A DNA stretch of 64,000 nt from contig CP154954.1 of the NCBI GenBank assembly GCA_039621445.1, positions 33,147,455 through 33,211,454 of the forward strand, given 5' to 3'. The notes beneath the pieces were generated by a model, which worked only from the letters and a program-made list of their open reading frames with translations, did not search any database and was not told where the DNA came from. Source of the DNA: Euglena gracilis. Its lineage: Eukaryota. Made by a program: the position numbers and the translations under genes. Below, piece by piece: positions 3,038-33,500 of this stretch (its first letter is position 1; each line of letters begins with the position of its first letter).

Positions 3038-6000
3038 ATGGCGAAATGTGTATTGTACCCCAGACCATTTGTGACAAGCAGACCACCGGCTGGAAGGGAG
3101 GGCTGTGAGGCGTCTTTCCGGGAGCTGCAGGAGGAACGCCAGCGAGAGGCCATCCGCCTCCGGCTCCACGCCCCCCCACCCCGCCGCTCCGCCGACCCGC
3201 CCAATCCCCCCCCCCCCCCCCACACCTGCGGACACATTGGCATCTCTACCAACCCCCCCCCCCGCTGCCCACAGATCGATTTTCGGCACTGCCGGTTCCA
3301 GCATCAGTACACCAACTGACCCACCGATGCGGCGGTGCAGCAGTGCTTGGCAGGACACAAACGTCCCATACACTGGGGGAGACCCCGGGCCTTTTGGTTT
3401 GCTTTTTTTTTTGGTTTTGATGGCGAAGGTGGTCCCGTTTCCCAATAAACCCGAAATGGCGAGGCCGGCACACAAAATGGCCGCCCGGCCTGACCGCGGC
3501 AGGGTGGCCGCAGGACACGGAGTTCGCGGCGCAGCTGGCGTCGGCGAAGCAGAGCGCGGAGCAGCGCCGGCAGGCGAAGCGGGAGGCAGAGGACCGGGAC
3601 TTCGAGGAGCGCTTCGCGAAGTTCCTGGCGGACCAGACCGGCTTCGTGCGGGACCTCCGGCAGGAGGTGAAGGAGGTGTGGCTGCTGACACGGGAAGCTG
3701 GAGGGGCCGCTGACACGGAAAGTGTTCTTGATTCGATGCGCTGAGTGCACACAGGCGCAACTTCGGTCCGAAAGTGACGGGAAAAAAGAAATGATGAGAT
3801 TGTTAAAAATTATTTGATTTTGTGGCATTTTTCCCCCGTACCCTTTCTAACCCCTCCCATTCAGACTGATCCCCCATTCATACTGACTCCCCCCATTTAT
3901 ACCGACCGCCGTGAAGGAAAGAAGAAGAAATCCATTTATATATAACCCCAACCCCCTCTCTTGCATCCGGTGCACCAAGGTAAAGCACAGAGAGGTCTCA
4001 GAAAACACAAACAAAAACACTTAGGCTCACGCCAGCGTTTATTTCTGGCGAAATGTGAACAGTGGATAATTGCTTATTGGGGGTGGATGACAAACTGGGA
4101 GAGAGGATGAATGCACGTCACCTCGTCCCCTCCCCCCCCCCAGTTGGGCATCTTGACCCATTTATACCGACCTCCCATTTACACAGACCCCCCCCGAGAT
4201 TTCAAGCAGTGTGAAAGTGACATACCGACCCATCGGTGTGAATGAGGGGGGGGGGGTACGTCTTTTGGTGGCAGTACGTAGTCAAATTTCACACACAAAG
4301 TCGGGGACAGACATTCATTTAGTGTGGTACACCAAGGTTGTCATTTTGTGGTTCACTGTGGACACCACAAAAATTTTTGTGGTTCACCTGTGGACACCAA
4401 AAAATTTTTTGTGGTTCACTTGTGGACACCAAAAAATTTTTTGTGGTTCACCTGTGGACACCAAAGTAATATTTGTGGTTCACATGTGGACACCAAAAAA
4501 TTTCCAACGCCTCTGACATTTGCATCATTTTCTTTCTCATCAACAGCAATGAAGCAATCTTCTTTGAACATGTTTGACTCAGGCGGCGTAAGTGGACCTA
4601 CAATTCTGGAGCTCTAAAAACAGAAGAGGAAGCGGAAAACCACTTCCAAAAAAGGGTCATATTTTTCGATTTTTTTTGAAGAGGTTCTGATTTTGGCCAA
4701 TTCCGGTGGACGTTTGGCTCACAGTAGAGACCTATACAGTCGAAAACAGACCTGAGAAGGCCAATTTACTTTCGAATTCTGGTAAAATCAACAAAACCAA
4801 TCAAGAAATACATGAACAGGAGGAACAGACAAAAACAAGCGTTGTTTCTGCTGCCGTAAGCCCCGAAGGAACGAAACAGAAAAATTAAAAAATGGAAGCG
4901 GTAAATATTACATTCCGCTTCAAAAGCAGGAGATGTGCAACGAAAACTGAACGCAATGAATTATACAGAATGTAATGTAAAAATATGCATAATGTTTGCA
5001 CACCAAAAAGGAAGCGTAAAACCGCTTTGAAAGAATCCGTTAAAAAAAATGTTATGAATTGAAATGATCAACAATGATCACCAAACGATATTCCAATCCC
5101 AATAACAACGAAGAACGTTAACATTTATGAAATTTATGAAGATAACAGAAACTGGACAAACGGAACAGAAATTGAATGTCATTATCCAAAGTGCATAATG
5201 CAAATACGTCAAACCACGTGGAGACAGTTGCACGAGTTACGAAAGGTAGAACAGGCGAAACGATACAGACCTTCTGTTCACTTCCCCGTGCTTCACTTGG
5301 AAGGACATTTCGACATGACATTGGCGTAAAACCTGCAAAAAAAAGCAGAGCAAATATGAAGCGGTTATCCGCTTCCTCAGGCTGACATAATACCTTTTAA
5401 TTATCTCATATTGCCAAACTGCAAAAACCAGAATGAGGCTGACACTCACCCTTCTGAATGAAAAACTATACTGAATGTGGTCTTTCATTGAATGGTCAAG
5501 TTGAAGATCTGACACCACAGCAATGAAGTGGCTTTCCGGCTCCTACCTCAAAACAAAGCACATGGCATTGCCGATTTTTCAGTCACTTTTTCAGGCACTG
5601 AGGCACTCAACTGACATCCACAATGCCCCAGAACGCTCCTAATGTCCACAGCCATGCCAAAGCCCCACGATAATGTCGCGTGTTTCTGCTTCCATGAAGC
5701 GGAATTCCGCTTCATCGACGCCAGTATTTAACTTTTTGATGGTATCCTTGTTGGGTAAGTTGTCTATAGAGCATGTCTGCTTGAGAACTCTCGATAGCAA
5801 TCTGTCCAATTCCAACTGCCACGCTTCGTGGATTGAGCCGGGGCCAAGGCTCAGAATGTGGTTGAGGTGTCTAAAGATCAATCCGCTTTTAGGTGTAAAT
5901 TTTTTCTTTCGATCCTCAATCAATTTTTGTGGACTACAAATTTTTTTGTGTACATCACAAAAATTTTTGTGGTTCACATGTGGACACCAAATATTTTTTT

Positions 6001-9000
6001 TGTGGTTCACCTGTGGACACCAAAAAAAAATTGTGGTTCACCTGTTGACACCGAAAAAAAATTTGTGGTTCACACGTCTTTTGTGAACCACACTAAATGA
6101 ATGTCTGGTCGGGGATATGACACATGGTCAATTTGGGGTTTGTTTTGTAATATAAAAAAAACAGCAACAAAAAAAGCACTACAAGACCATTTTGACCTCT
6201 TCTTTTTTGACTTTTTTGCCAGAAAAGTTTTGTCACAAGCGGGAAAAAGTATTCCATTTTCTGTGAAAACCAGTACAGTCCATAAGGGACGGGAAAGTTC
6301 TTCTTTATTTTTATTTCTTAAGGACCCCCCCTTTGGGCCAAAAGGCCAGCAAATGGCCGGACTCAGGCTTGAATGGTGTCGAAAATCAAAGTCAAAAAAC
6401 ACGTTTTTTGACGTTTTGGGTGGGTGGGCGCTGAGCCAGAGGTGTGGAATCAATTTTCTTCCGCTGTCGATCTGTTCTTGCCGAAAAATGCCAAATTTCC
6501 TTGCCCATTTTTTTTGTGGATTTTTCATTGCATGTGCTGGGACAGCGGAGTTTTTTTTTAATTTTCTTATGGTGCACCAATTGTGCCAGTGAGTTGTGTG
6601 TGTGTGCGCGTGTGTTGTGCAAATTTCTTCTGAAGGAAGGGCGGGGGGGGCAATGGGAAGGCAATTTTGACCACAGGAGTCGGGTTTGGGGAGGGGGGAG
6701 CGTAACACCATGCCCCCAGCACCGAAGGCGCTTGGCCCCCAAAATGACCGTTTTCCAGGAAACTTTTTCACCACCAGGATGCAACATTGACCCCCGTAGT
6801 TGTTGCTTTGCACTGCCTCCAGACCCTGTCGTCCCACCCACCGCAGCTGGACGATCAGCAACAGAGGAGGAAGGAGGCGCTGCACGAGGGGTGGGCGCAG
6901 TCGGTGTACCGCCCAGGCTTCTTTTTATCGACGACCCACCAACACCAGGGTTGCTATGGGATATGGGTTGCCATGGGTAGTGCTATGGGATATGGAGGGA
7001 GGGCACTTTGAAAGCCCTCACAGCTCGGTGGGCATTTGGCTTTGGGGTAGGTTAAGCTAGCACACACACAACACACACATGCACACAACACACACACGCA
7101 CACGCAACACACACACACACAACACAACATAACACACATACAACGCACACAACGCACACACAACACAACACACACACAACACAACACAACACACACACAC
7201 ACAACCCACACAACACAACCCGATCACAACACACACACACCCCGGCGTGGAAGGCGCTGGGGGGCCCGAAAATGGCCAATTTTCTGGGAAGATTGCCTAG
7301 GCCCCTGGTGTGGGCCAACCCCCGCAGAACCAGGCACACCACTGCCCCCCAGGGGGTGCGAAACAGACGCCGGGCCCCGCCCGATCCAGTCGGAGATCCT
7401 CGCCCGCGTCGAGGCCAGCCCCGCCCACGCCATGGGCGCGTCCCGCGGCCGCAGCCGCGGGGACGGCGCCGCGCCGGCCGCCGCATCGCTCGGCGCGTCC
7501 GGCAGCCAGGCGACCCTGGACCGGTCGATGCAGGAGCGGCTGGACCGCATGGCGGGCTCCATCAAGTGCCGCCCCGCCCCGCCCCACCCCGCCCGCCACA
7601 CTCCCAAAAAAAAAGTTTTTTGGCTTTCTGTGTGACCAAACACCATTTAGAATGCTATTTTTTGAACCATGCGGACAGTTTACAGATAAAAAATGGGGCA
7701 TTTGTATTTTTTTAGGGGTCAACCTTTGACCACAGTTCCTGGAAGCATTGACCAGACACTATTTTTAAAGCGAAAATTTCGAAATATTTCAAGGTTTTTG
7801 GGGGGTTTTTTGATATTTTTAAGGCACCTTAAGAATTAATACCTGCCCGCCCTGCTGCCCCCACTGCTGCCGGCGCAGACACGTGAGGCTTCCACTCGTC
7901 GTGGCGCCATCGACTGCCATTTGCAGCTGTCAGTGGGCCGGAACCGCCGCCATCCCATCCCTGTCCATAAGCATCCATTAAGCCTCCCTCCCCCAGGCTG
8001 ACCGACCAGCCAAAGTGATCCCCCCCCTTTTTGACGGTTTTTGTGGGTGTTATCGCCAAAAAAAATTTCGCTTTTCATGTGACCAGCACCACTTAAGGTG
8101 CTAAATCTTTTAAAGCATTGTAACGGATTTCAAATTAAAAAATGGGTATTTATTGGGGTATTTCTAAGAGTCAGATTTTCGCCATCAGTTCCTGGAAGCA
8201 TTGACCCCCCCCCCAGCACTCCCATGGTTGTCTCTGGGGTCACCATGCGCAATTACCCTGCAGGTACTCCGTCAAGGTTCAGGACCCGCTCTTCTCCTCG
8301 CTGGGGACGCACTTCGACGAGGAGTTCAGCGCGCTGGCCGGCGTGCTGCTGAAGCGGAAGGGCCCCGAGTACCGCAACCTGGCCTCACCGCTGGAGTACC
8401 TCCGCCCCGAGGCGACCCCCAACGGCCGCTACTCCGAACAGGTGTGGGGACGCCGCCTTATTGATGCTTTAAAGCATTAAGCCCCCGGTGTAATCCAGGT
8501 CTTGAATTGGTGGCAAAAAGCAAACTCCCTCCATAAAGTGCCCACAACGAGGTATTAGCAGCGTCGATGAATATAACCTGTTTATCATGATCCAGTTATA
8601 ACTTAATAATAATAAGTAAACCCCCCCCCAAATAATACCCCCCCGGGGTATTATTTTTTCGCCCGAAGTCCCGGCCCGAGGGGGGGGGTATTATTTGGGG
8701 GGGGGGTATTATTTTTCCAAAAATTTCGAAATTTTTCGAAGTCCCGTAAAACCCAAAATAGCACCCAAAACCCCCTTTGGGGTCATTTTTTGCACTTTCT
8801 TGTGAAATTTACCATTTTATGGAGGTCAGATGAGCCAGAAAAATTGATTTTTTTTCGTAATTTGTTGTCAGAGATTGTGGTTTTTACCGACATTTTCAGG
8901 TCAAAAATCCGGGCCTTCGGCCCGGAACAGGGGGGGGGTATTATTTCGGCGGCCGAAGTCGGACCCCGAGGGGGGGGGGGGGTATTATTTGGGGGGGGTA

Positions 9001-12000: not shown

Positions 12001-14493
12001 AAGCTTGGTAATCTGGTACCTCAAACGATAAATTGAATCTCTTTGGCCAGCCAATCAAAATAAGTTGTGGCTCAATGGGCGAGGGAATATAACAAGGAAA
12101 CTTTTTGTACAAGATGAATGAAGAAAAACATTCCGCTGACCCCCAGAATAACAAGCCTCCCTGACCCCTCCTGCCAGCATTGGATACCCCTCAGGCTTTC
12201 TGTGTACAAACATCATTGGCAGGCATATTCTTAATGGCCCCTCCGGGGGGGAGGGGCGTCCAAAACATCCAGGCAACAGATTGTGTTCTGATGAGTCAGG
12301 GGGGCCTTCAGCATACCCCCCCCCCCTATGTCCAACGACCCCTGTATGTCCAATGACCACCCCCCCGGTCAGAGGACACCTTTTCAGAGGTTTGACCAAA
12401 TTTTTGGTCCCGGCGCTTCACGCCGGGACGAAAAATTTTGCCCAAAAATTGGCCAAAAATTTGGCCAAAGTGCCATTTTTGACACTTTTTGGACAAAAAT
12501 TTGTCAAAATTGCCCAAAATTTTCGGCGCGAAGCGCCAGAAGGGAAAATTTGGGCATTTTTGGGTGGGTAGGGACCCGGGTACCCACCAACTTTCTTTTG
12601 ACCCCATGTCCAACGACCACCCTCCCGGTCAGAGGACACCTTTTTGGTCACTACCCTATGTCAACGACCACCCCCCCCCCCCCGGTCAGAGGACAGAGGT
12701 TACCGGTCATTGGACATAGGGGGGGGGGGTAATTGTGCCTGCTTTCCCACTGGCGATGTGACAGCGGTTTCTCCTTTGGGGAGGTGCGCACTTTTTAGGG
12801 AGGTAGTTTCGGACCCCTTGGGGGTGCGCATTTATTTGGGCACTGCGCTTAATTAGGGCACTGCGCTTAATTAGGGCACTGCGCACTTTTGGGGGGGGTT
12901 TAGGCCCAAGTTAGGCCGCATTCCGGACGAATTTTGGCTGAATTCGGGCACTTTTTTTTTGCCTAAAAATGGGACCCAATTTCTGGCATAACTTTGTCCC
13001 TAAATTGGACCAATTTTTGGCGCACCGATCCAGCCCTGACCCTATTCCTAAAAATTAAGTGCCCATCCTACCTGAATCCACTGCCGGTTGCCCTGAAACC
13101 GCGCACTTCCCCCGTGCCGCGGGCAAGCACCTATATTTAAAATGGCCAAAAATGGCCGGAAATGGCCGAAAATGGCCGAAAATGAAATTTTGGGCTCTAT
13201 AGGTGGGGGTCCCGAAAATGGCCGAAAATGGCCGAAAATGGCCGAAAATGAGACAATTGTTGCAATTTTTTTACATTTTTTTTTGCCTAACAGTTTCTTT
13301 TTCCCTGAGGGGCAATTTTCAGTGCGACTGATTCTTATCTCTGTGCAGCCTTTCTTCTTTTGTTATCATGCCTGGCCCTGCAACACATGCTGCTCAAAGA
13401 ACCACCTCCGAATGGGTTATTTGGGCCAAAGCCGATGGCTTTGATGACATTTCAGAAAATTGTGGTGACAAGGTGCAACCAGGCAAAGTATGTGATGCGT
13501 TTTTTTCTCCGTTAAAGGTGTGATTCCTGCATCAGGTTTATTGCACACAAGTGGATGGGATCTAACAGTGCCACCATCAAACAATGTTGCTTGGGGTATC
13601 AAGTTGGAATAGGTGAGGGGAAGTTGTTTGTGAAAAGTATCCACGCCAAGAGGCTTGAAGAGAAAAGCACCAGTTTTGGTGTTGCCATCCACCATTGTGG
13701 TTAATATGTCATGTGCCAACCACTCTCATGTAGCGTCCCAAGAACCCCCAGCAAAAAATGACCAAAGTGGACAAGAGCCTCTCTGGCAGGAAAAAAGAAG
13801 CTTATTCCCAAAACCTTATATTTGCATATTGCAACAAAAAACTCTTTGACCTCTTTAATCCCTGAGCACCCATTCCAAACGGACCTCCTTGGATGCGTTA
13901 GCTTGTCACAACTGCTTTCATGTTGACTGAATGACCAAAATGCATTGTAGGTATGAAAGAATTTTAAGGCAGCTTTACCCCCCACTTGTAGGAAAAAATG
14001 GCCGAAAATGGCCGAAAATGGCCGAAAATGGCGAAAATCTGGGGGTCAACTATAGGTTGTTGCCCGCGGGACCGAAAAGTCGGACCCAGGTCACCCCCCC
14101 CCCGGGGGGGGGAGGCATTAAGAATATGGCTTCCATACACATATTGGGGGATCAAACCTCCAGGACCAGAAACTAAAACATTTTCTGCTGCAATTTTGCC
14201 CTCATTTTGCCCAAGTCTACTTTTCTCACACAAAATTCCAATGCGCTTTAAAAAAAAATAATGCCTGATGGCAGCCATTGACAACAACAACCCCCAGCTC
14301 AAAATGCTGCGGGCCAACCCCTCTCGTCCACAGAACGCCGAAGGGCCGCCTCAGACCGGGGGGCTGCATCACGTACCAGGGAAGCGCTCTGCCGGGGAAG
14401 CGGATGGTCAGCCACTCCCCGACCGCCCCCGGGCCCCGGCCCACCGGCCGCAAGGCCCTGCAGGGGCCCCCCGACGGCCTCGGGTCGCTCTAG
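3038..14493 (+). CDS. Multi-exon gene for a hypothetical coiled-coil protein with weak FAM228-like similarity
   Basis: GC-rich exons join in frame: ~3038-3170 (MAKC...ASFRELQEERQREAIRLRLH), ~3275-3318, ~3513-3675 (DTEFAAQLASAKQ...FVRDLRQE), 6847-6910 (LDDQQQRRKEALHEGWAQSVY), 7379-7565 (RPIQSEILARV...), 8264-8441, 10838-~10918, ~11077-11309 and 14334-14493 (ending GLGSL-TAG). The FVxD...RRKExLHxxWxxxVYxPIQxxI pattern recalls FAM228 proteins (from memory, not searched). The start codon and some junctions are uncertain. Confidence 0.65.
4308..6107. mobile_element. Non-autonomous hAT-like DNA transposon, 1.8 kb
   Basis: 25-bp TIR CAGACATTCATTTAGTGTGGTWCAC (24/25 match). Perfect 8-bp TSD GTCGGGGA at 4300-4307 and 6108-6115. 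Subterminal GTGGTTCACCTGTGGACACC repeats at both ends. Confidence 0.9.
6911..7378 (+). other. Non-conventional intron (gene 1)
   Basis: C|gccCAGGC...GCCGGgcccc|G, with no GT-AG. Removal gives in-frame VYRPIQ, and the ends can base-pair. Confidence 0.75.
7060..7240. repeat. Degenerate (CA)n/(CAACA)n microsatellite
   Basis: Directly visible. Confidence 0.9.
8617..9037. mobile_element. MITE with TAAACCCCCCCAAATA termini; related copies at ~16673-16866, ~46297-46386 and ~51762-52177
   Basis: Inverted ends TAAAC(C)nAAATAATACC / GGTATTATTT(G)nTTTA, internal GGGGGTATTATTT repeats and no 8-bp TSD. Confidence 0.7.
12314..12731. mobile_element. MITE with TA(C)nTATGTCCAA termini (possible TA target site)
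   Basis: TAC11TATGTCCAACGACC ... GGTCATTGGACATAG11TA inverted repeat, with internal direct repeats of the terminal motif. Confidence 0.75.
13124..14062. mobile_element. hAT-like element with (AAAATGGCCG)n subterminal repeats
   Basis: Ends CAAGCACCTATA / TATAGGTTGTTG. TSD GCCGCGGG/CCCGCGGG (7/8). Confidence 0.7.
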
Positions 14494-17318: not shown

Positions 17319-17630
17319 CAGGGCGGTCCATAAGGGATGGGAAGTTTTTTTTTCCCTTGAGGACCGCCCCTCAATGACTGCCCTTAGGCCCAAGGGACAA
17401 CGGCCGATCCGGGGATCAAACGGGGGGTGGGCAAAATCAAAAAAGTCGAAAAGCGCATTTTTTAACGTTTTGGGTGGATGGGCGATGTTTCAAGGATGCC
17501 AGAAATCCTCCCCCCCTCCCCGAAGTCGACCCATTTTTGCCAAAACATGGCTATTTTTTCGTCCTTTTTTTAATGAATCCCCCATTGGCTGTGCTGGGAC
17601 AGAAAGGTTTTTTTCGTTAAGGACCGCCCG
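17319..17630. mobile_element. MITE, CAGGGCGGTCC family
   Basis: TIR CAGGGCGGTCC / GGACCGCCCG. Perfect TSD CTTCCCAC at 17311-17318 and 17631-17638. Confidence 0.85.
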
Positions 17631-18565: not shown

Positions 18566-18637
18566 GGGCGTGTAGCTCAGTGGTAGAGCGCCCGCTCCGC
18601 ATGCGGGAAGTCCAGGGTTCGATCCCCTGTTCGTCCA
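18566..18637 (+). tRNA. tRNA-Ala, anticodon CGC (variant C33, possibly a pseudogene)
   Basis: GGGCGTG TAGCTCAGTGGTAGAGC G CCCGC-TCCGCAT-GCGGG AAGTC CAGGG-TTCGATC-CCCTG TTCGTCC A. It folds as a cloverleaf with intact A and B boxes, the G3:U70 alanine determinant and discriminator A. Confidence 0.9.
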
Positions 18638-21589: not shown

Positions 21590-24500
21590 CGGCCGCGTGG
21601 TGCGTGGCGTTGGGGCCCTGAGCCCGTTGGAGCTGGCGCTGGACGGGCTGTGCCTCAGCCTCCTCCTGTGCTCCCTGACGGCGGTGTGGCGGGTCCCGGC
21701 GGCCCAGGCACCGGTGGCAGCCGACCGCTGATTCTGGTCCCCCAGAAGCCACAAATATTTTTTGGCGTCCATACGTGAACCACAAAAAAAATTCTGGTGC
21801 CCACAGTGAACCACAAAATGACAACTTTGGTGTACCACACTAAATGAATGTCTTTGTTGGAGTGCGTTGTGAAACGGACCGAAATTGCCGCAACTGCATG
21901 AAGGTTGTTGGGTGCTCGTAATTTGAGTTTTGGTCACCCTTCCATCCACTTTGCAGGAAAAAAGGAGCAATATTAAAGGCAGGTGAACGAGAAAATGCAT
22001 CTTGTTCAATGCTCCTTGGCCCACCCCCTCCTTGAACTCCCTGCAATCCAGCCCCACTTCCCCAGCCCCCTCCAGGTACCCCGGTCCCCCCGCCCTCCCC
22101 CCTCCCAGGCCCCGGCACTGCATTTGGTCTCGCCGGCACGAGTCGAAATAGGGGTGGGGGCTTATCCTAACCCAGCTCAGCAACCCTGATTTATAAAACC
22201 CTCCCTTGGGCCAATCAACCAAGACAGCGGATAACCCCTCCCCCCCACCTGGTGAAGAAAAACAAAAGAAAGGGTTCAGGGACGAATTCTTTTTCTTTTT
22301 GCCGCAAAGACCCAAAACTGAGTTCTCTGCAATTGTTATATGGCGGACCGCGAATATTTGGACTCGAGCCGACACACCTATCCATAATTAAAATAAACTT
22401 TAAAAATGCCTTTTCCCCCTGAATTTTTGAGAATTTTGCTTAAGTTTTTTCAGAACTTTGCTCATGGTCTTTAATTTTCTGCCGGAGTACTCCCACTAGG
22501 TGGGTGTGTCCCAAGAGCTGTCCAAGAGCGGTAGGGGGATGACTGCCTCTGGTGGCTGTCCAGTATCCAATCCATGGCGCTTGGGGAGTATTTTGGGTGT
22601 TGGGGCATCGAAAGGGGTGGAAGCTCAAACAATTGAGGAACTGGACAATGTTCCACGGGTGCCAGAACTGATGCTTTTTTCCGGGAGTTGGCTTGTTTTT
22701 GCCGAGAGTGTGTGATTTCACTTTGTTAGTGACCGAATCGGTCAGATAAATTTCCGCCAGTGATTCTTTAAGCTTATTTAAGGTTTTATGAGGCATTATG
22801 AAGCTTTTTGGCCAATGAAAATTAAGGTTTTTAAAAAAAAAATTAGGCTTTGAGAGGCATGTTTAAAAATGGCCCTACCTGGGATATTTAACCCCCAACC
22901 ACTTGGAACCCTGTGGTTTACTGGATCTCGTTTGGTGAGTCAGCCGAAGGGGGGAGGTTAGAAGTCAAGGTCTGAATGTTACCGCGGCAGACTCGCGACT
23001 AAGCTGTTTTCGGCCCTTTTTTTGGGGGTCAAAAAAAATCAATTTTTTTAAAATTGTCGAAAATGGTGGGGAGTCAATGGAAATGTCCGGTGACCTGAAT
23101 TGAAGCCCTTTGAAGCCCTATCTAAGGGTATTTTGATTTCCCTGCAACTCCCTGCCTAGCCCGAGTTACGACCATTTTTCGGCCAATTTTGGCCATTTTG
23201 TACAGTTTTGGCCTGTTTTGATTTAACCGTTGTGGGCCATTTTTGGGTCAAAAAGGTCGAAAAGTTTTTGAAAAAAAAATCGAAAAAATTTTCCCGAAAC
23301 GATGTTTCCCGGACCCGGACCCGGACCAACTGTCTTTGGCCCGAAACCCATGCATTTGGGTGCAAAAATTCATATTGAGCCTCAAGAGTGTCCTAAAATA
23401 CACCCGGCGTGAAGCGCCGGAATATTTTTTTCCCGCCCTCGCAGAGGAGGAGGGGGGTGGGGGGGACCCCCTTCCGAAACTAGGAGGGTGGGGGGACAAG
23501 GTTTTGAATAGTGCTGAGCTCTTAATGGGACTTGCACGTAATGGACAGCCGAAAAGACTGGCATTGCAAATATCGATTTACAAATTACACACCTGCAATT
23601 TACGGTTACTTACAGTAGTTTTTGAAAGGTTAAGAAGTCAGCGACCCCCCCATACCCCCCATACCCCTTTGCTTCGATTTTTTCGACTTTTTTGACCTGG
23701 AAATTGAGAAGTTTCGGCGACCGAAAACTGGAGGTAGGAGGCCCCCCCCCCCGAGATTCCCATACAAGCCTGGGGGTTTGATTCGCTGCCACATTTTATA
23801 AATTGAGCCGGAGCCAAGGTCCACAATTTGGCTGATGTGCCTCAAGATCAATCCGCTTTTAGTTGTAAACCTTGAATTTTTTTCGATCCTCAATCAAGTT
23901 TTGTGGGCAATAAAAAATTTTGTGGACTCCAAAAAAATTTTGTGGTTCACCTGTGGACACCAAAAAATTTTTTGTAGTTCACCTGCGGACACCAAAAAAA
24001 TTTTGTGTTTTTGAACCACAACAACAGCAGTGCAACCCGGCCTCACGTTGACATTTCATCTCAGACCCCCGAGTCCTACGAGGTTGGGGGAAGCACCAGG
24101 TTTTCAGCCGACCGATGGGCGGTCGGTCGCCCCCACATTCCAGCCTCGCAAGGTTGGCAGCGCTGTCGTGGCCTGCCGATGTCTTGCGGCAGGCAGCAGA
24201 GGACGATGGGAACGGCTTTCGGTGGTGTGCCTTTCCTTCCCTCTGCTGGAGTGAAAGGCGGGAGGCCACTGCCGCCTCTGGCAAGGCCCTCCGGGGCCAA
24301 AGCTGCCCACGCACGCTTTGATTCGACGCTGACCCTCAGCACGGTCGGGTCTCTCCCAGCCATTTTTTTAAAAAAAGTGAAAAAGTTTAGGGCTGTTTAA
24401 GTTCTATTGCCCAGGGGTGGTCCAAGGGCGGTCCAGGCATCGAATGGGGTCTGAAACGAGACAAAAGTTGGAAGCCCCATTTCTTCGAGTTTGGGTGGAT

Positions 24501-27500
24501 GGACAATGTTCCAGCGATCCAGCGATTCCAGAAAGCTTTTTTTCCCAATAGTTGGCTTGTTTTTGCCGAGATTTTATGTTTTGCATTTTTTCTCAGTTGC
24601 ATTTTCCAGAGTGATTTTTCTTCGGGTTGTTTGAGGAATTTTAAAGGCATTTCTCAAAAAGCATCCTGGTTTGTCCTCACAGGAGGCTACGACAGTTGGG
24701 CGTGACGCAGTTCTGCTACACGCTCTTCGACTGGGTTGCGGTGGTGCACCTCCTCCCCACCCTCCTGACGTGGCGGTGCTACGACCTCCTGCTGAACCTG
24801 TGGGAGTGGTGGGGTCAGGTGTGCAGATCCCCTGCTTCCCACTGCTGTTTTTTACGCGTATGTGTGTGTATTTGTAATTTTTTTTCCTTTTTTGTTCCTT
24901 GTCACCTGGAAGTTTATCCACAGACATTCCTCCAAGATTTGCATGTGTTTGCCAGAGATCCTATTTTCGGGTCTTTCCGCTGGTGTTCTGTGTTTGTTTT
25001 TCTGCCTGCCTGCCTGCGCCGCCGCCTCCTCCTATCCCCCGTGGCAGGAGCCGGGCTACAACCACAACCTCCGCTGGCAGTGCATCGTGCAGTTCTGGCT
25101 CGCGGTGCTGGACGTCCCATTCGTCGTGATGGCCCTCTGCATCCTGCCACCTGGGGCGGAGCCACCCCTCCCACAGCCCACCCATGCCTGCCAGCCTGCC
25201 ACAGTCCTCCCTTGCAGTTACCTGCAGCACCCCGGCTCTGCCCCTGCGCTGTGCCCCTGGGAGGCCGTCCTGTTCTTCCTTGAGGCCCGGCGCCGGTCCC
25301 GCCAGCACGAGCGGCACCAGGACAACCTGACGCCGTCGTTCCGCCCCCTCATCTGGAAGTATTTCTGCCACACGGTGTGCACCCCCTGTCCCCACCAGAC
25401 AATTGCTTAAGCACTGGCCGACCTTCCCCCCCCCCCCGGGGGGTGACTGGTTTTTTCGATTGACTGACTGGTTTTTAGCCTGGACCCCCTCCCCCCTCGG
25501 GGGGGGGGGGTCGGCAAAAAACCACTAAAGTGACCCGGCGCCGAAGGTGACGGAAAATGTTTGGCCTTTTTTCCACGTTTTTGGTCAAATTTTCTTTGGA
25601 TTCCAGAGTGGCTGACCCCCCAGGGGGGGGGGGGTAGTGACTGACTGGTTTCCCGAAAAAAAGTGATTGACTGGTTTTTCAAAAAGTGGAGGTGACCCCC
25701 CCCGAGGTCGGTAAAAAATTGTGTGGTCCCCACCCTAACAGCCATGTGGTGTCCGCCGCGGAGGGGTGGTCGTGCGTGTGTTGCATCTCCTGATGGGATG
25801 CCGCCTCGAATTGGAACCCACCCAGGGCAACCTCACACCTCAGCAGTGAATGGCCATTTGGGCCAATTTTGCGGCACTATGCCTGCCACCCCAAACAGAC
25901 AGAACCCCAAATTCCCAAAGGTTCCAAAGCACCCAAGGCTTTTTTTTTGGAATCTTGGGTTTGGGGGACACGGCCGGGGGCTACAGGGGTCAGGGGGCCA
26001 CCTCAGGGGTTTTCCCTGCGGGCATGTGTGTTGGAGAACGGGGGGACTGCGGTGGAAACAACTCGCAAAGTGCTGGAAAACGGTTCCCTTCCAGTGTTGG
26101 GACATACGTGCGCGCGCGCACACACACACACACAGACAGACACACACACACACACAGACACACACACACAGACAGACACACACACACACAGACAGACAGA
26201 CACACACACAGACAGACACACACACACACACACGCACAGAGAAAGACACACACACACAGACACACACACAGACAGACAGACACACACACACACACACACA
26301 GACACACACAGAGACAGACACACACACACACGCACACACACACCGACAGACACACACACACACACACAACACACACACATCCCCAGGTGTTCGACGTCCT
26401 GCTGCTGCCCATCGCGCTGGTGCTGCTGCTGACGGGGTACCGCCTCCCCCGGGTGCTGGCCGAGGCGCGGGGCCCCTGGCGGGACGGAGAGCTGTTCCAG
26501 TGCAAGGCCATCGTGTTTTACCCTCCAGAGCCCGCCAGACCCACCGCCCAGCGGAACCCCCGAGGCTGCGGCTGGGCTGTACCCAACCACAGAAATGAGT
26601 TCGGGTCTGTGTAATATGTGTCCATATGTGTGCCTCGACACGCACATGTGCTGGTCTGGGTCCCGATGCGGATGAGTGTGCCAAGGCGTGCCGTGCCCCA
26701 GACCATCCCGGCGGGCCCTGCCGCCACTTCCTGGGCCTCGTGGCGCTGGACGTCCCGGCGGCGCTGTGCGGCATCGTGGTGGCCCTCACACTGTGGCGCA
26801 CGAGGGCGCTGCTGGAGGACCTGCAGGTGCTCCGCCGAGTCCTGTCCATCCCCCATGCAAGCCTTGCCGGTTAGTCGGCTTGTAAACCCCCAAATGTTTA
26901 GCCCCAAAATGTAAAGCCCCCCAAAAAACGAAGCCCCCTGGGGGGGTTTGGTTTTGCCGCCTGAATGATCGGGAAAAGCAGGGGGGAAATGGGTGGATAC
27001 AACAATTTTTTCACCATATATACTCCATTTTGGACAAAAACACGCTTTGGGAGGAAATAGGACGTAAACAACGATGGTATGCTTGCTATAAAGGAACTCA
27101 TCCCCACTGACGTCACAAATGCTTCGCAGCCTTAGAAACAGGCGGTCCACAAGGGACAGGAATGTATTTTTTTCTTTTAAGGGCCGCCCCTTAGAAACCA
27201 CCCTTGGGCCAAAGGCTTAGACAGCCGGGAATGCACTTTTCTTGTTGAGTCACAAAATTCTGGCAGTTTTATGAAAATGCGCATCCGCCCATTCCGGAAG
27301 CGGAGTGCGCAGGTGCGCATTCTGGATGGTTCTGTGCTTCTTCCAGACTGGGGTAAACACCACAAAATGAGCTGTTTGGATTTAACACAACCACAGGGAC
27401 CACCCCCTTGTATACTGCTTCAATTACGTATCATGCTGTTTACAACTGTTTCACGACGACTGTGGTACGGTACGCGGCTGGACACACACTCGACACACCA

Positions 27501-30500
27501 CATGACATGCGGAACACGGGCGACGTAGGCCAACCTGGACCTGGGTGTGCCTTGTGTTCACCGATGTGTGCTGATGGCTTCCGGGGGGCAGGGCCTAGTG
27601 AACCCAGGATGAGGGCTGCAGTGCGCCGTGTGGAATGCAAACAGCAGGCATCCCGAGGAGGGTAACAAGCCCTCCCCCACCAACATCTGGTGTGTATTTA
27701 AACACCCCCCCCGCCACCCTCTGAATGCACACCACACACACACATCAAACATTCGCTGGCGCTCCCCCCAGGCCCTGCTTCAAACACACGGCACAGAACG
27801 TCCCCTCCACTCTAAACAGAGAGACCACAGTGCCTCTTTCCCCCGGAGCCGCAATAACCGTCCAACACTTCAGGAAAAGGCTGGGGCGGGGAGGGGGGGT
27901 GAATGCGCTCCTGCGCATTCATTGGGAACCACAAAACAGGGGGGACAGCAACAGGTACAACGGCTTCACCTGACCAGGGTTCGTCCTCGTGAAACAGCGT
28001 TTTGTGTCACACCTCCTTTGGCATACGGGGTTTCTCCTTGGTCGGCGGAGGTGCTAAACCACTATTTTCAAAACGAAAAAAGTCGTTTCACCCAGGAAAA
28101 AACCCAGGGGTCGAAGCTGGCGGTACCCATTTTGGTACCCATCATGTTCATATATCGACGACCGTATCTTGGGCCACGCTTTGTATGAACCGTTTGACTC
28201 TCAACTGGTGCACCCAGGGAGAGAGATGACCTTGGGTTCTGTCTGAATGAGAGTGTCTGTCACACACGTCGACCCACCCCCCATTATTTTGCTCGTTTCA
28301 TACGCGACCCTGACCCATCCCCCCAACCGGCCCCCGTGGTCCAGGCCGCCGCGGGGGAGAGCGACGCGTGGCGGGGGGTCTGCCTGCGGCACTTCGGTGG
28401 GCTGCTCTTCGACCTGCCCTTCATGGCGCTGTTTGTGGCTCTGCTGCCGACCGGGTCTCCCCTCTCCCCAGGGCAGAACGGGAATCGGCCGAACAGCCAG
28501 GGTGGTGGGTGGGGGGGGGGGGGGTCAACCACCAGGCATTATTTTTAAGGCGAAATTTCTCAAATTTTTTAAGGCGTTTTTTAAGGTTTTTTAAGGTTTT
28601 TAAGATTTTTTAAGGCATTTTTTTCCTCAGGTAAAATGCCAGACCCCGAAGATGGCCCAATGGCTTCAGACTCCTCTGTGGCTTCGGAACGCCCAAGGAA
28701 GAGAGGGCGAAGGATGGGGATCAGGGCGGTCCATGAGGGACAGTTATTGTCAACATGCAAGCAAATATCCTGAATAGGGTCAGAAATTTAAAGTAATTGC
28801 AATGAATAAAAAATGGATGGTTTCGAGTTTGAGTTCGAGTTCGAGTTTGTTGAGCAATGTGTATGGCAGCACACTGCATGGGCACGCGTTTGGTATTGCT
28901 CACATGAAGAAGTTTGATTATTTTCTCGGTGTTAATGAGACTATCCGGTGTGGGTGCACGGCCGCATTGCGGGTCTGCAAATCCGCGATTGCAGTTCGGA
29001 TATCCACTGTGTCATTTTGCCACTGTTGTTGCAAATTCTCAATCCTACTTGCTATATTCGAGATTTTGGGTGTGAAAGCTTGCAAATTCAGCAGGAATTT
29101 ATCCACAATGGCAAGATTTCTGCTATAAACGAGAAATTCTTTCTTCCAACTGCTGCACATGAGTGCGGGGATCAAAACTTTCGCGTGCTTGGGCAAGAAA
29201 GTGGGAAAAATTCGCGGAATCACAGCTCAATTGGAGAACGCGCTGTTTCGCTTTTTGAAATGCTGTGGCAAGTGTGGGAAACTGCTCCAGCGTAGTAAAT
29301 TGTCCCAAATCGGTATTTTTTTGTTGTTCATGCAACTTTTGCTGCAATTGCACTTTTGAGCAATTTGGGTTGACTCCTCTACGAATGTCTCAAGTAATTC
29401 AAATCAAGAAAGATGTGGTTGCAAGTTTTACTTTTTCTGGCCGTGTGTCATAGCCTTTGGTGAACCGAGGCCAAACGAACTGTGCCAGAAACCTTGGCGA
29501 ACAATCCGGTTTTCATGTTGGTTGTTCACAACCAGGCTCCTTTTTAGTCAGAAGCCCCCCCCCCCTGGGGAGGGGGGGTGGGTGGGTGGGTCTGGGCCGG
29601 ACCCCCCCCCCTGGGGGGGTCCCGCGCCGGAGGCGCCGGGTATACCTTTTCGGCGCAAAGCGCCGAAATTTTGAAAATTGCCTTTAACGGGCCCGATTTT
29701 GGGGGGTCCCCGCCCCCCCCCCCCGGGGGGTCCCGCGCCACCCTGGGTGGGGGGGGGGGACCCCCCTCCCCCCCAGGGGTCTTAAAAAGAAGCCTGTTCA
29801 CAACTGCTTCTGCATTGACTGGCTTTATGCAGGGTTTCAGACATGCCATTATTTGTTTGGTGCAAGAAAAAATTTTCTCAGGGATAATTTTTAAGGTTTT
29901 TTAAGGTCATCACAGGGAAGAAAAACTTCCCCGGGGTGATTTTTTAAAGGTTTTTTCAGGTTTTTAAGGTTTTTTAAGGCATTTTGACAAAAAATTTAAG
30001 GTTTTTTAAGTTTTTTAAGGTTTTTTAAGGCGCCTTAAAAAATAATAATGCCTGTCGACCACCCCCTCCCCCCACCCCCTGCATGGTGGGTGGGGGGGGG
30101 GGTCGACCCCCCCACCACCTCTTCCCGTATTTCCGGGAGCACCAATTTTTGGACCCTAAAAAAATTTTCCGGTGCCTTCGGCGCCGGGTTTTTTTTTGAC
30201 CCATTTTGGGACCCATATCGGGGGTCCCCCCAAAAACCACCCAAACCCCCATTTTTTCACACCTTCCAAAAACTCAACATTTTCTCAAAATGTTGATTTT
30301 GAGAGGTTTTTGAAGCAAAAAAATGCCATTGAAAGTCCAAAAAAGTTCAACGAGAAAAATTGTCAGTAAAATTTGACTGTGCCAAAATTTTGTCCACTTT
30401 TTTTGACCTTCGTTTTTTTCACCCCCCTCCTAAAAAGTACCAGTTTTTAGGACGAAAATTTTGAGATTTTTTGTGAAAAAATGTGGTTTTCCATCAAAAA

Positions 30501-33500
30501 ATCATGTGTTTTGGGTTCATTTTTCAAAAAAAATTTCAAAAATCTTCCCGGCCAATACCCCTGTTTTCCCGAAATCACTGAAAATGCTGTGGTGGGGGGG
30601 GGTCGACCACCCCCCCACCAGGTCTTCCCGGTCTGCCCTGCCTCTCCCTGGGCCCTTCCCTTTGCACTGCAGGTGACCCAAGGATGTCAGACAGCTCTAG
30701 ACACAACTGGAGGGGGGGGCGTTAAGGCATTGACCCCAGCCCTGGGTCTATTCTTTCGGCCCAGGAAACACCCCCAGTGAGACGGGTGCCCAAGCCACGG
30801 AGCCAGCCAACCACTAACAAACGCTGACTTTCCCCAGCATTGAACCCTTGACCACGGCACAGTTGCTGCCTGCGCTTGAGACCGCTGTACCCCCCACACC
30901 CGCAGGTTTTATTTCGTGCGGTTGGCGCGGACGCTGGCCCGCCGCACCCGAGGCACCGCCGACCCCACGCCCCAGCTGGACCGGGTCGAGCTCCGCCCGG
31001 AGCCCCCGACCTGCGTCGAGGGGAAGTGCCCCCGCCTCTTCCTGACGGCCTCCAAGCCCCCGGGGCTGGCCTTCCAGTCCAGCTACCTCCACCTCGACGA
31101 CGTGTGCCCCTCTGTCCACTGCTCTTCAGCGCCCTGATTCCAATGCCCGTTGAACCCGGAGGTTTTTTTCAAAGTTTCCGACCCAGGGGAAGGGGGGGGG
31201 GCAGCAACCCCAGCTGAGGGTTCGGGCCGAGTCGGTACTCCCTCAGAAGGGGATTCTTAATTTCAATGCAAAACGCAGAAAATTTTTGTGCCCCAAATGA
31301 CCTCGTCAAAGCGGGTCGGTAAAACCCGAACGGTATTTTGTGCGCAGGCCGCCAACCGGGGCCTCTGGCATCGGCTGGGCCTCCTGGGGTACTACCCGAC
31401 TATACTGCGGGCGTTCCTGCCCCTCAAGCTGTGCCCGAAGTACGTCTGCGCCGGCGACTTCGTGGCGGGCAGCGCCACGGTGGCCACGGTGGTCAAGCTT
31501 CCAATGAGCCGGTACCCGCCCCCGCCATGCCTGGCAACTGAAGTGTCCCCTCTGCTTTCAAGAACTGCGGGTGGTGGGGGGTGTTTTTTTTTGGTCAATA
31601 AGGGACAGGATTCTTTTTTCCCCTCCAAACCGCCCTTAGGCTTAATACCCAGCCAATGACTGGTCCAGATGTGGAACGGTGTCGAAAAGTTTTAGCTCAA
31701 ATAATACATCTTTTGATGTTTTTGGTGGACGGGCGATCGTCCAAGGATGCCAGAAGTATTTTTTCCCGTGAAGTCGACCTATTTTAGCCTAATATAGCTG
31801 CACAGCCATTCTTCCATTCATCTGGTGGATTTTTCATTGAATGTGCTGGGATTTGGAGGTTTTTTTTTCAACTTTTGAAAACCGCCCTGCCTCAGGGGTT
31901 CTGCTGATTCATAAAAATTTCGTCGCAGCGTCGGATGTCAATTCCACTTTCGGGCTTTGAGGGAGCACTCCGGACTCTTTACCCTGACGTTTCTGGTGCT
32001 TTCAGCCAACCCCGTGAAATTCTGGGGGTTGTCCGGAACGCCTGGCGGGCGTGGAAGAAGCCCTGTCACCTGTCCCCTGACATTTTTCTTTTCCTGGGGC
32101 TGTCGCTATGTATTTGCCCCCGTGCACCCGCCTCCTGCCTCAGACACACCTTCTACGACGTGCTGTCCAAGCTGGAACGATCCGCCCAGGCCATGTGCTG
32201 CTGCATCGACGGAGAGAAGTTCCCAATTAGAAGCCCCCTCCCTCGGGTTTCCCGCAAAAAAAAAAATCCAAATAACAGCCCCCTCCAGGGCGGCCCAGCG
32301 CATTGGGCCGAAAATCGGACAGAAATGAAGGGAAAACTTACAATGTCTAGCCGACAAAGGGAAAAAAGTTGAAACCGGATATCCTTGGACCAACGCCCAT
32401 CCACCCAAAAGTTCAAAAGATACATTTTTTGGCTTTTTTTAATTTTTGTTTGATCCCCAGACCGGCCCCAGGCCATTTGGCCAAAGCAGAATAGAAGACG
32501 CCCCCACAGGCTTTCCACACTGTACTGTGATTGAACAGCAAACCCGGGAGGACTTATAGTTGGGGGGAGGGTTCTGTCCGGAGGAGGAAAGGAACCAGAA
32601 AACCAGCCGTTTCACCCTCCGAACGTTCTGGCGTCCTCCTCCATCGGGTGGAGGCCACCAGCGCCCAACCCAAACAGCTGATTCCAAATCCAAGTTCTTT
32701 GAGGCAAATACTTTTTAAAGCTTTCCTCTTCAAAAAAGAAAAGGAAATCCCCCCCTTTGGTGCCATCTTTTTCTGATGAACATCAGGCTTCGAAGTCGAC
32801 GCTCTCCTGAGCTTTGCCCGCCATTTTCTTCACCCAGGGGTTCCCCACAGAGCTGGATGACTGCCGGTTTGGGTTCTGGCGCACGGAATTTGGAATATGG
32901 GACCTGCCACAACCCCATTGTTCAATTGGAGGTGCGGTACGGCAGCGGGCAGGTGTGTCTGGGAATAGTTTCGCAGTCTGCAGTGTGTATCAAGCTCACA
33001 CATCTCGAAACGCATGTTTTAACAGAGTTGCTGCCAATACAAAGTACAAATGCCAATACAAACTTTTTCAAAACCACGGTTCGTTCAATGTTCCCGCGCC
33101 AAACAGAGGATAAGAGGTTGTTGGTTAGATTTGATTGGCTTGTGTGTCCGCAATTGCGCGCATGGACATCGTTTTGCTTCCTTTTGGGAGTGGAATGATC
33201 TGGCCAACCTGTCACAGAACTCAATTGGTGAGTGGCAGTCCCATTTGTTCCTTTTTCTTTCGATGAAGGAAAAGGGGCTTTTTTTTCAAGGGAGGGTGAG
33301 GGACCGTAGGTGGTCCCCACCTGAGCCACACCCCCAATGGATTGCGTGCAGGTGGACTGGGTATGTGTCCAGCCAAAGATTTCATTGGAAATAGTCAGCT
33401 CTGAAAGTGTTTAAACGGCGTTTTGAAATAAGTTTTATAAGGTTTCTCCTGGGGTCCACGTTTGGGGGGGGGGGGCGGTGAACAAAAGGTAAACGCAACA

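Follow-up and report, generated by a model that had tools for sequence, protein, structure and literature searches.

A candidate nonconventional intron of Euglena gracilis that probably derives from a miniature inverted-repeat transposable element

Nonconventional introns of euglenids have CAG at positions +4 to +6 and CTG at -8 to -6, termini that pair with each other, border repeats resembling target-site duplications (TSDs), and pyrimidine|purine (Y|R) junctions (PMC11282704). In Euglena gracilis, their reported consensus is CCAGG at +3 to +7 and CCTG at -9 to -6, and conventional introns of the same species begin with GTGTG and end in a C-rich tract plus CAG (PMC11170887). An origin of euglenid nonconventional introns from miniature transposable elements with inverted repeats (MITEs) was put forward in 2013, at a time when euglenids had no known transposons (PMC3935182), and the idea was repeated for diplonemids (PMC12621601); in 2025, the origin of these introns was still called unclear (PMC12501133). 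In this study, we analyzed a stretch of 64,000 nucleotides (nt) of the E. gracilis genome (assembly GCA_039621445.1, contig CP154954.1, positions 33,147,455 to 33,211,454 of the forward strand; hereafter the window, to which all coordinates refer). Within it, a predicted intron at 6911-7378 (the focal intron) interrupts a putative coding sequence on the + strand and has ends that match those of a MITE at 29533-29796.

The splicing code of nonconventional introns has been defined genetically as 5'-N3CDG...CH'GN5-6|R. In one intron tested, splicing was lost with every single substitution in CAG or CTG; the natural combinations CGG-CCG and CGG-CTG and the engineered combination CTG-CAG were tolerated, and the code signature was present in 61.2% of nonconventional introns, so exceptions exist (PMC12501133). 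A second system close to the present locus is that of the introner-like elements of Polarella glacialis and Aureococcus, which have 8-nt TSDs, use several registers, and are removed by the spliceosome as GH...AG introns (10.1101/2020.10.14.339549).

Our analysis indicates that the 460 bp at 6914-7373 are probably an old, decayed copy of the 29533-29796 family, of which the young copy lies 22 kb away, that made an intron and would be removed nonconventionally. This applies to the explanation as a whole, and its components differ in strength. A transposon origin, with creation of the intron by the element, is well supported by the sequence; removal at exactly 6911-7378 by the nonconventional route is predicted with a confidence slightly short of even, and removal by nearby conventional GT...AG sites is a real if tentative possibility. 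The preliminary description of this locus had proposed that a MITE became the intron, and this proposal was supported: the MITE aligns collinearly with both termini and with the right ~135 nt, and the element together with one copy of its duplication makes up a 468-nt in-frame gap. The features of the locus, and the reference MITE, are as follows.

6825-6846 (+): C-rich tract plus CAG, preceding the upstream exon piece.
6847-6910 (+): upstream exon piece, with a GC content at third codon positions (GC3) of 0.89 over 6847-6903; putative exon by composition and frame, ending at 6910 under the nonconventional model.
6906-6913 (+): left copy of the duplication, GTACCGCC, which fits GTnnnnAC at positions 1, 2 and 8.
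6914-7373 (+): putative decayed MITE copy of 460 bp, which starts with CAGG and ends with CCGG.
6914-6953 (+): left terminus and subterminal region, comprising the 14-mer, a spacer of ~12 nt, and a decayed CCCC/GGGG palindrome.
7060-7239 (+): CA-rich microsatellite core, which has no counterpart in the MITE and explains much of the extra length.
7236-7373 (+): right half, collinear with the right ~150 nt of the MITE.
7374-7381 (+): right copy of the duplication, GCCCCGCC, agreeing with the left copy at 6/8; the two bases that differ would be intronic under the 3+5 model.
6911-7378 (+): predicted nonconventional (3+5) intron of 468 nt in phase 1, with borders C|G and C|G.
6904-7389 (+): rival conventional intron of 486 nt, in frame, with GTGTA at its 5' end and CCCGATCCAG at its 3' end.
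7379-7565 (+): downstream exon piece, putative by composition, with a GC3 of 0.98 over 7390-7569; GTGCC follows at 7566.
29525-29804 (+): reference MITE 29533-29796 (264 bp) with its perfect duplication TTCACAAC; it is nested in 28533-30054, which is itself nested in 28469-30640.

A 7-nt direct repeat, CAGTCGG, at 6898-6904 and 7387-7393 also brackets the insert; it is probably due to chance and adds some ambiguity to the borders. As an alternative duplication it was rejected, as no inverted termini lie inside it.

Near the left end of the focal intron, the 14-mer CAGGCTTCTTTTTA (6914-6927) equals the reverse complement of the MITE terminus 29783-29796 without a mismatch (14/14), and it agrees with the left end of the MITE (29533-29546) at 13/14. 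Near the other end of the intron, 10 of the 13 bases of AAACAGACGCCGG (7361-7373) are complementary to the 14-mer over its first 13 nt, and the flanking 8-mers GTACCGCC (6906-6913) and GCCCCGCC (7374-7381) share 6 of 8 bases. These figures reproduce what the preliminary description had claimed for the 14-mer, the 3' end and the flanks, and the MITE, described there as flanked by a TSD, is bracketed by a perfect 8-bp duplication, TTCACAAC. That description had further called the MITE free, which holds insofar as the element lies outside exons; it is not intergenic, since it is nested within two larger elements.

The 14-mer occurs five times in the window when up to two mismatches are allowed, versus 0.81 occurrences expected, and five occurrences were reached by only 1 of 100 shuffles. 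With up to one mismatch, four sites remain, namely both ends of the MITE, the 5' end of the intron (6914), and a site at 41732 that opens a TTTTAAGGC-repeat region resembling the left end of element 28533-30054. The preliminary description had considered that the 14-mer might be common at random positions; its near-exact copies were found at element ends, and the word is therefore linked to such ends rather than scattered. When the 14-nt termini of different elements in the window were compared (220 between-element pairs), the two highest-scoring pairs were those of the 6914 left end with the two MITE ends (14/14 and 13/14), and the median agreement among termini of unrelated elements was ~7/14. 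We also searched for partners of the left end, defined by an inverted match of at least 10/13 plus flanks of at least 6/8 at a spacing of 40-3000 nt. Position 6914 has exactly one such partner, 7373. Among 6000 random left ends, 46 had any partner of this kind, as did 6 of the 334 other CAGG starts, giving the whole configuration a chance of ~1-2%.

The homology of the focal intron to the MITE was found to be longer than first noted, being collinear for ~40 nt from the left terminus and for ~135 nt from the right one. In an anchored alignment, the last 42 nt of the element (7332-7373) are identical to the last 41 nt of the MITE at 30 of 42 positions; the score of this terminal segment (17) was reached by none of 2000 shuffles (-8.8 +- 4.2, maximum 7). 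When the right 41 nt of the MITE were slid over both strands of the window (~128,000 positions), the best non-self hit was 12220-12261 (score 21), which is the end of another relative, followed by 7332-7373 with a score of 17, whose register is exactly that of the proposed end, and then by a hit with a score of 14. The right 135 nt are collinear with the right 150 nt of the MITE with a score of 16 versus 5.0 +- 2.6 in shuffles, none of 500 reaching the observed value. On the left, 40 nt aligned to the left end of the MITE with a score of 15, making this the third-best non-self locus in the window, and when the 14-mer was held fixed and the remainder shuffled, the observed score was reached by 19 of 2000 shuffles. 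In a four-way alignment of the termini, a spacer of ~12 nt separates the 14-mer from the C-run/G-run palindrome in both left ends and in neither right end; the intron and the MITE therefore share orientation and architecture. A full-length BLAST comparison of the two returned the 14-mer alone, and the wider homology emerges in the anchored and global alignments. A scan of metagenome contigs for further family copies by a terminus-gap-terminus pattern gave 0 matches.

Two observations on related sequences can be added here. A segment of the upstream intron, 6704-6761 (+), has 45 identical positions in 63 alignment columns with the interior of the focal intron at 7228-7290, a score reached by none of 500 shuffles. 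Motifs related to CCGAAAATGGCC are present at 12400-12560, 13129-14047 and 52289-52327; this family is broad and fragmentary.

Excision of 6914-7373 plus one copy of the duplication (468 nt in total) joins two open segments of the + strand in frame, with GC3 values of 0.95 and 1.00. Read without splicing, the frame meets stops at 7009 and 7048. The downstream piece links by phase to the exon at 8264-8441, which is bounded by CCCTGCAG and GTGTG. In every in-frame splice model, sequence belonging neither to the element nor to its duplication amounts to 18 nt or less, and hence the insertion would have created the intron, with no older host intron at this site. The log-odds of third positions as coding are +1.2 nats for 6904-6912, +1.9 for 7381-7389 and -1.2 for 7354-7380, values that modestly favor the mRNA expected from precise excision.

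With regard to the splicing signals, the preliminary description had assigned the intron a 3+5 register, that is, three intronic nucleotides before the element and five after it, which is the spacing of the published euglenid nonconventional code. The 5' side, both C|G junctions and the pairing of the ends agree with that code, and the 3' triplet does not. Given a border at 6910|6911, which is inferred, CAG lies at 6914-6916 after a 3-nt spacer and CCAGG occupies +3 to +7; at the other end, the 3' spacer GCCCC (7374-7378) is 5 nt long and is followed by a purine (G at 7379). Pairing of the termini was assessed by the published metric, which joins the terminal nucleotides as 10+7U+10 (PMC11170887). 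The resulting energy is -11.8 kcal/mol, matched by 0.2% of 2000 random pairs of sites 468 nt apart; with the same metric, ten other elements gave -1.2 to -14.4 and the conventional models 0.0. The centroid fold of the whole intron pairs 6911-6922 with 7365-7375. Sliding the borders within the CCGCC repeat yields no position with an AG 3' end. A shifted reading with CCG at 7370-7372 and a 6-nt spacer is possible and falls outside the published geometry. Four other in-frame models were found, 6899-7378, 6904-7389, 6906-7352 and 6900-7352, the last three of which are GT...AG introns. The left duplication begins with GT (6906), as expected for the 'GHN6' class of introners; the element ends in GG, not AG, and the in-frame AG sites nearest to its end are 7351-7352 and 7388-7389.

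To place the focal copy among the elements of the window, we scanned for strict CAG...CTG ends with an inverted repeat of at least 10/13 and compared the flanking 8-mers, using five shifted-flank controls. Eight elements had a duplication of at least 7/8, versus 0, 0, 0, 0 and 1 in the controls, and six had perfect duplications, versus 0 in all controls. A seventh element with a perfect duplication, 25396-25725, has one CAC terminus, so that overall seven elements carry perfect 8-bp duplications and two more carry duplications of 7/8. Across 11 elements, the target logo is the palindromic GTnnnnAC: 7/11 targets have T as their second base, 9/11 have C as their eighth, and AC occupies positions 7-8 in 6/11 (P = 6.5e-6 versus the AC frequency of the window). 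This shared logo points to one type of transposase for several element families.

Transposons of the hAT superfamily make 8-bp duplications, have termini starting with CAG, and prefer the target nTnnnnAC. By termini and target, the CAG...CTG elements with 8-bp duplications look hAT-like, and they resemble hAT MITEs, as judged by these general criteria, in their 8-bp duplication, short CAG termini, GTnnnnAC/nTnnnnAC target, small non-coding nature and nesting. A point against the hAT label is that Merlin transposons of E. gracilis also make 8-bp duplications; these are described as having near-perfect inverted termini and 5'-GG ends (PMC8101967). Compared with that description, the elements of the window differ in that the outer CA/TG belongs to their inverted repeat (CAGG...CCTG), as is shown by the perfect duplications, which directly adjoin CAG and CTG.

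Three elements lie in coding-like open frames after precise excision, namely 6914-7373, 34146-34568 and 25396-25725. In a fourth, 28469-30640, which may be an intron as well, only the left flank is coding-like, and seven elements, including the reference MITE, have non-coding flanks. With its flanks, the reference MITE satisfies the whole published code (AAC-CAG...CTG-TTCAC|A). It is the innermost of the nested trio 28469-30640 > 28533-30054 > 29533-29796, the members of which have their own duplications of 8/8, 7/8 and 8/8, respectively. Element 34146-34568 (423 bp; flanks 34138-34145 and 34569-34576) has inverted termini matching at 11/13 and a duplication of 6/8 (CCGCGGCG/CCGCAGAG), and it interrupts an open frame with GC3 values of 0.95 and 0.90. 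It fits the full code, with N3, CAG...CTG, N5 and G, and is the cleanest nonconventional-intron candidate in the window by these sequence features; its termini agree with those of the focal intron at 10-11/14. Element 25396-25725 (330 bp) has the perfect duplication GTCCCCAC and CAGAC-type termini, and interrupts a frame with GC3 values of 0.90 and 0.80 on the + strand (or 0.84 and 0.90 on the - strand). It is probably the 'first family' alluded to in the preliminary description, and the separation made there between this family and that of the focal intron is supported by their different termini.

Two further elements were observed in the window. One, at 4308-6107 (1800 bp), has near-perfect inverted termini of 30 nt, the perfect duplication GTCGGGGA and 32-bp subterminal tandem repeats; it sits in the intron upstream of the focal exon, and a related repeat block is present at 23900-24036. 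The other, at 48865-49742 (878 bp), has perfect 13-nt termini and the perfect duplication ATCGGCAC, and blocks of GCCGACCAGG and GCGATGCTGG form its 10-bp subterminal tandem repeats.

A number of observations weigh against the explanation favored here. One is the 3' triplet at 7371-7373 (-8 to -6), which reads CGG and not CTG, with CCGG at -9 to -6, in violation of the code. The minimum-free-energy fold of the whole intron leaves the ends unpaired, the whole-intron z-score is -0.75, and the end helix forms in a shifted register with A6915 bulged, which is not the canonical CAG/CTG geometry. Good conventional signals are also available in frame: GTGTA at 6904 can be combined with the C-rich CAG at 7389, and a further CAG with a C-tract is located at 7352. 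With respect to the MITE relationship, the middle of the intron (6955-7235) is unrelated to the MITE and holds the CA-rich microsatellite, and the family sample is small, with one other family copy within the window. The 10/13 match is weak when taken alone, as the window contains 131 sites with at least this agreement to the 13-mer, versus ~105 expected. Similarly, an agreement of at least 10/14 is reached by 26 of the 220 between-element terminus pairs, so the right terminus at 10/13 is not family-specific; at 7373 it agrees at 10/14 with the MITE and equally at 10/14 with element 34146-34568. The duplication at the focal intron is only 6/8.

The remaining points of this kind concern the gene and the source of mobility. 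A search for homologous proteins with exon 2 (7381-7569) found no relatives, and no homologue spans the junction; exon status of the focal pieces is thus inferred from composition, frame and neighboring exons. Among the 10 longest open reading frames (ORFs) of the window, the longest of which from stop to stop is 345 aa, Pfam recognized no transposase family. As to the other searches with the gene, a scan of metagenomes for loci related to exon 2 gave 597 pattern matches, none of which was confirmed. A lone HMMER match among representative sequences, an 820-aa low-complexity protein with 11 matched stretches, was rejected as a relative. A Pfam scan of eight exon-like ORFs returned one match, which was below threshold: EST1 for the exon-like ORF 3421-3741 (+) of the same gene (E = 0.081, 13.8 bits versus a cut-off of 25).

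The broken 3' triplet is one argument for an alternative that accepts the same MITE origin and lets the spliceosome now remove the intron at GT...AG sites (6904-7389, 6906-7352 or 6900-7352), which would make it an 'intermediate' or hybrid intron. The conventional sites would then have taken over, possibly after a change of the 3' CTG to CGG. Each of these models keeps the frame and meets no stop, GTGTA has four of the five bases of the E. gracilis GTGTG, and the 3' sites have the C-rich tract plus CAG reported for this species (PMC11170887). Moreover, neighboring putative introns of the gene look conventional (C-rich CAG at 6846 and 8263, GTGCC at 7566, GTGTG at 8442). However, each of these models drops or adds codons against the third-position signal, at a cost of ~1.2-3.1 nats, and their termini are unpaired, whereas the element ends pair strongly. 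The prominent G at +5 is absent from GTGTA and GTACC, and introns with both sets of motifs constitute 0.8% of all E. agilis introns (PMC12501133). We therefore regard conventional removal of a MITE-derived intron as a serious but rather unlikely account. A nonconventional intron with other borders, 6899-7378, would fit the published code literally as a CGG-CCG derivative, with CGG at 6902-6904, CCG at 7370-7372, a 6-nt 3' spacer and a purine at 7379. It measures 480 nt, is in frame without stops, and could form a 6-bp helix of -5.2 kcal/mol; CGG-CCG introns could be spliced in knock-ins, and N6 spacers are tolerated (PMC12501133). Its pairing is nevertheless unremarkable, being equalled by 9.6% of random pairs, it would delete four codons with coding-like third positions, and an in-frame CGG is estimated, without computation, to be fairly likely by chance in a GC-rich exon, all of which makes these borders highly improbable.

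Two other alternatives question the relationship or the intron itself. The resemblance to the MITE might not reflect common descent, if a loose consensus (CAGGC...TTTTTA), imposed by the splicing code or by a single transposase, is common to the ends of all introns and elements of this genome; the focal intron would then simply be an old nonconventional one. The median agreement of ~7/14 among unrelated termini and the 26 of 220 pairs at 10/14 or more are in keeping with such a consensus, as is the right terminus, which is as near to 34146-34568 (10/14) as to the MITE. Against it, the values of 14/14 and 13/14 are the extreme of the 220 pairs, the similarity at the left end (~40 nt) and at the right end (~135 nt) and the shared asymmetry go beyond what the code needs, and the code as published constrains triplets and pairing only, not sequence (PMC12501133); we consider convergence of this kind improbable. 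Finally, there might be no intron at all, the gene being disrupted (a pseudogene or a retained insertion) or the GC3-rich pieces not belonging to one transcript. The gene gave no homologue and no Pfam family above threshold in our searches, and the broken 3' triplet could mean that splicing was lost. Both flanks, on the other hand, have a GC3 of 0.9-1.0 in one open frame with a phase link to 8264-8441, and a dead gene would be expected to lose its GC3 and frame; a disrupted gene is accordingly the most improbable of the accounts considered.

Under the favored explanation, in which a MITE copy made the intron and is removed nonconventionally, the anatomy suggests that a cut-and-paste, hAT-like element inserted on the + strand into a coding exon and duplicated its 8-bp target. 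The insertion itself would have created the intron, because the gap that separates the in-frame exon pieces is fully accounted for by the element and one duplication (468 nt). Removal would most likely proceed via the euglenid nonconventional pathway: the inverted termini would pair in the pre-mRNA and draw the ends together, and the cuts would fall 3 nt ahead of the 5' CAG and 5 nt beyond the 3' triplet. Since 3 and 5 add up to the length of the duplication, exactly one target copy would stay in the mRNA and the frame would be restored (6910|6911 and 7378|7379). The same equality would explain why both junctions have the same dinucleotide, at target positions 5|6. Later decay would have included the change of the 3' CTG to CGG and changes at two intronic bases of the right duplication, and the CA microsatellite would have expanded inside the element.

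The focal intron shares with euglenid nonconventional introns, as described in PMC12501133, PMC11170887, PMC3935182 and PMC11282704, the N3-CAG start, CCAGG, the 5-nt 3' spacer and the purine at the exon start, as well as Y|R junctions, inverted termini that pair, direct repeats at the borders, and the absence of GT-AG at the proposed borders. It differs from them in its 3' triplet, which is CGG instead of CTG, CCG or CAG, and in that excision is here predicted from sequence. Beyond that literature, the present locus adds that the border repeats would be the halves of an 8-bp TSD and that a free copy has the same termini. Similar to introner-like elements, the focal copy would be a non-autonomous DNA transposon with inverted termini that inserted into an exon, is removed as an intron, and has borders supplied by its duplication. 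Unlike them, it has GC...CC as its proposed borders, and paired termini would be the signal for removal. A dinoflagellate reading of the locus was rejected: the spliced-leader word occurred once, with 1 mismatch, versus 0.57 occurrences expected, and the borders and nearby splice signals suit euglenids better. The maize Ds element is also said to be spliced as an intron, a report attributed to Giroux in 1994.

Nonconventional introns are reported to make up 71.8% of E. agilis introns. In our literature search, which covered main texts available without subscription, we met no paper that links the 3- and 5-nt spacers with an 8-bp duplication or presents free copies of an intron's family. The kind of intron described here is already known and has been hypothesised to have such an origin; the focal intron is a new, decayed case with an unusually direct link to a free copy, and on its own, as a single and predicted case, it is of modest weight. 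Extended to the class, the proposal that euglenid nonconventional introns are insertions of hAT-like MITEs making 8-bp duplications is a plausible one to which we give somewhat less than even credence. If it is true, the 3-nt and 5-nt spacers would be the two parts of an 8-bp duplication (3+5 = 8), which would explain the same pyrimidine|purine dinucleotide at both junctions and why most of these introns are 'slidable', and nonconventional splicing would be a precise excision at the RNA level that renders exonic insertions harmless at birth. The window would then provide the first family-level link between an intron and a free, perfectly duplicated copy. Perfect-TSD CAG...CTG elements outside exons, together with intron termini of the same family, make the MITE hypothesis directly testable, and the 3-nt/5-nt geometry of the splicing code could be explained simply by the 8-bp duplication.

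Besides these elements, the window contains a dispersed repeat family of a few hundred bases, with copies ~60-80% alike at 821, 6386-6557, 17440-17614, 31691-31866, 42201, 43084, 43405, 52835, 60309 and 61542. A tRNA-Ala gene (anticodon CGC) at 18566-18637 (+) was the sole Rfam or ARAGORN match in the window.

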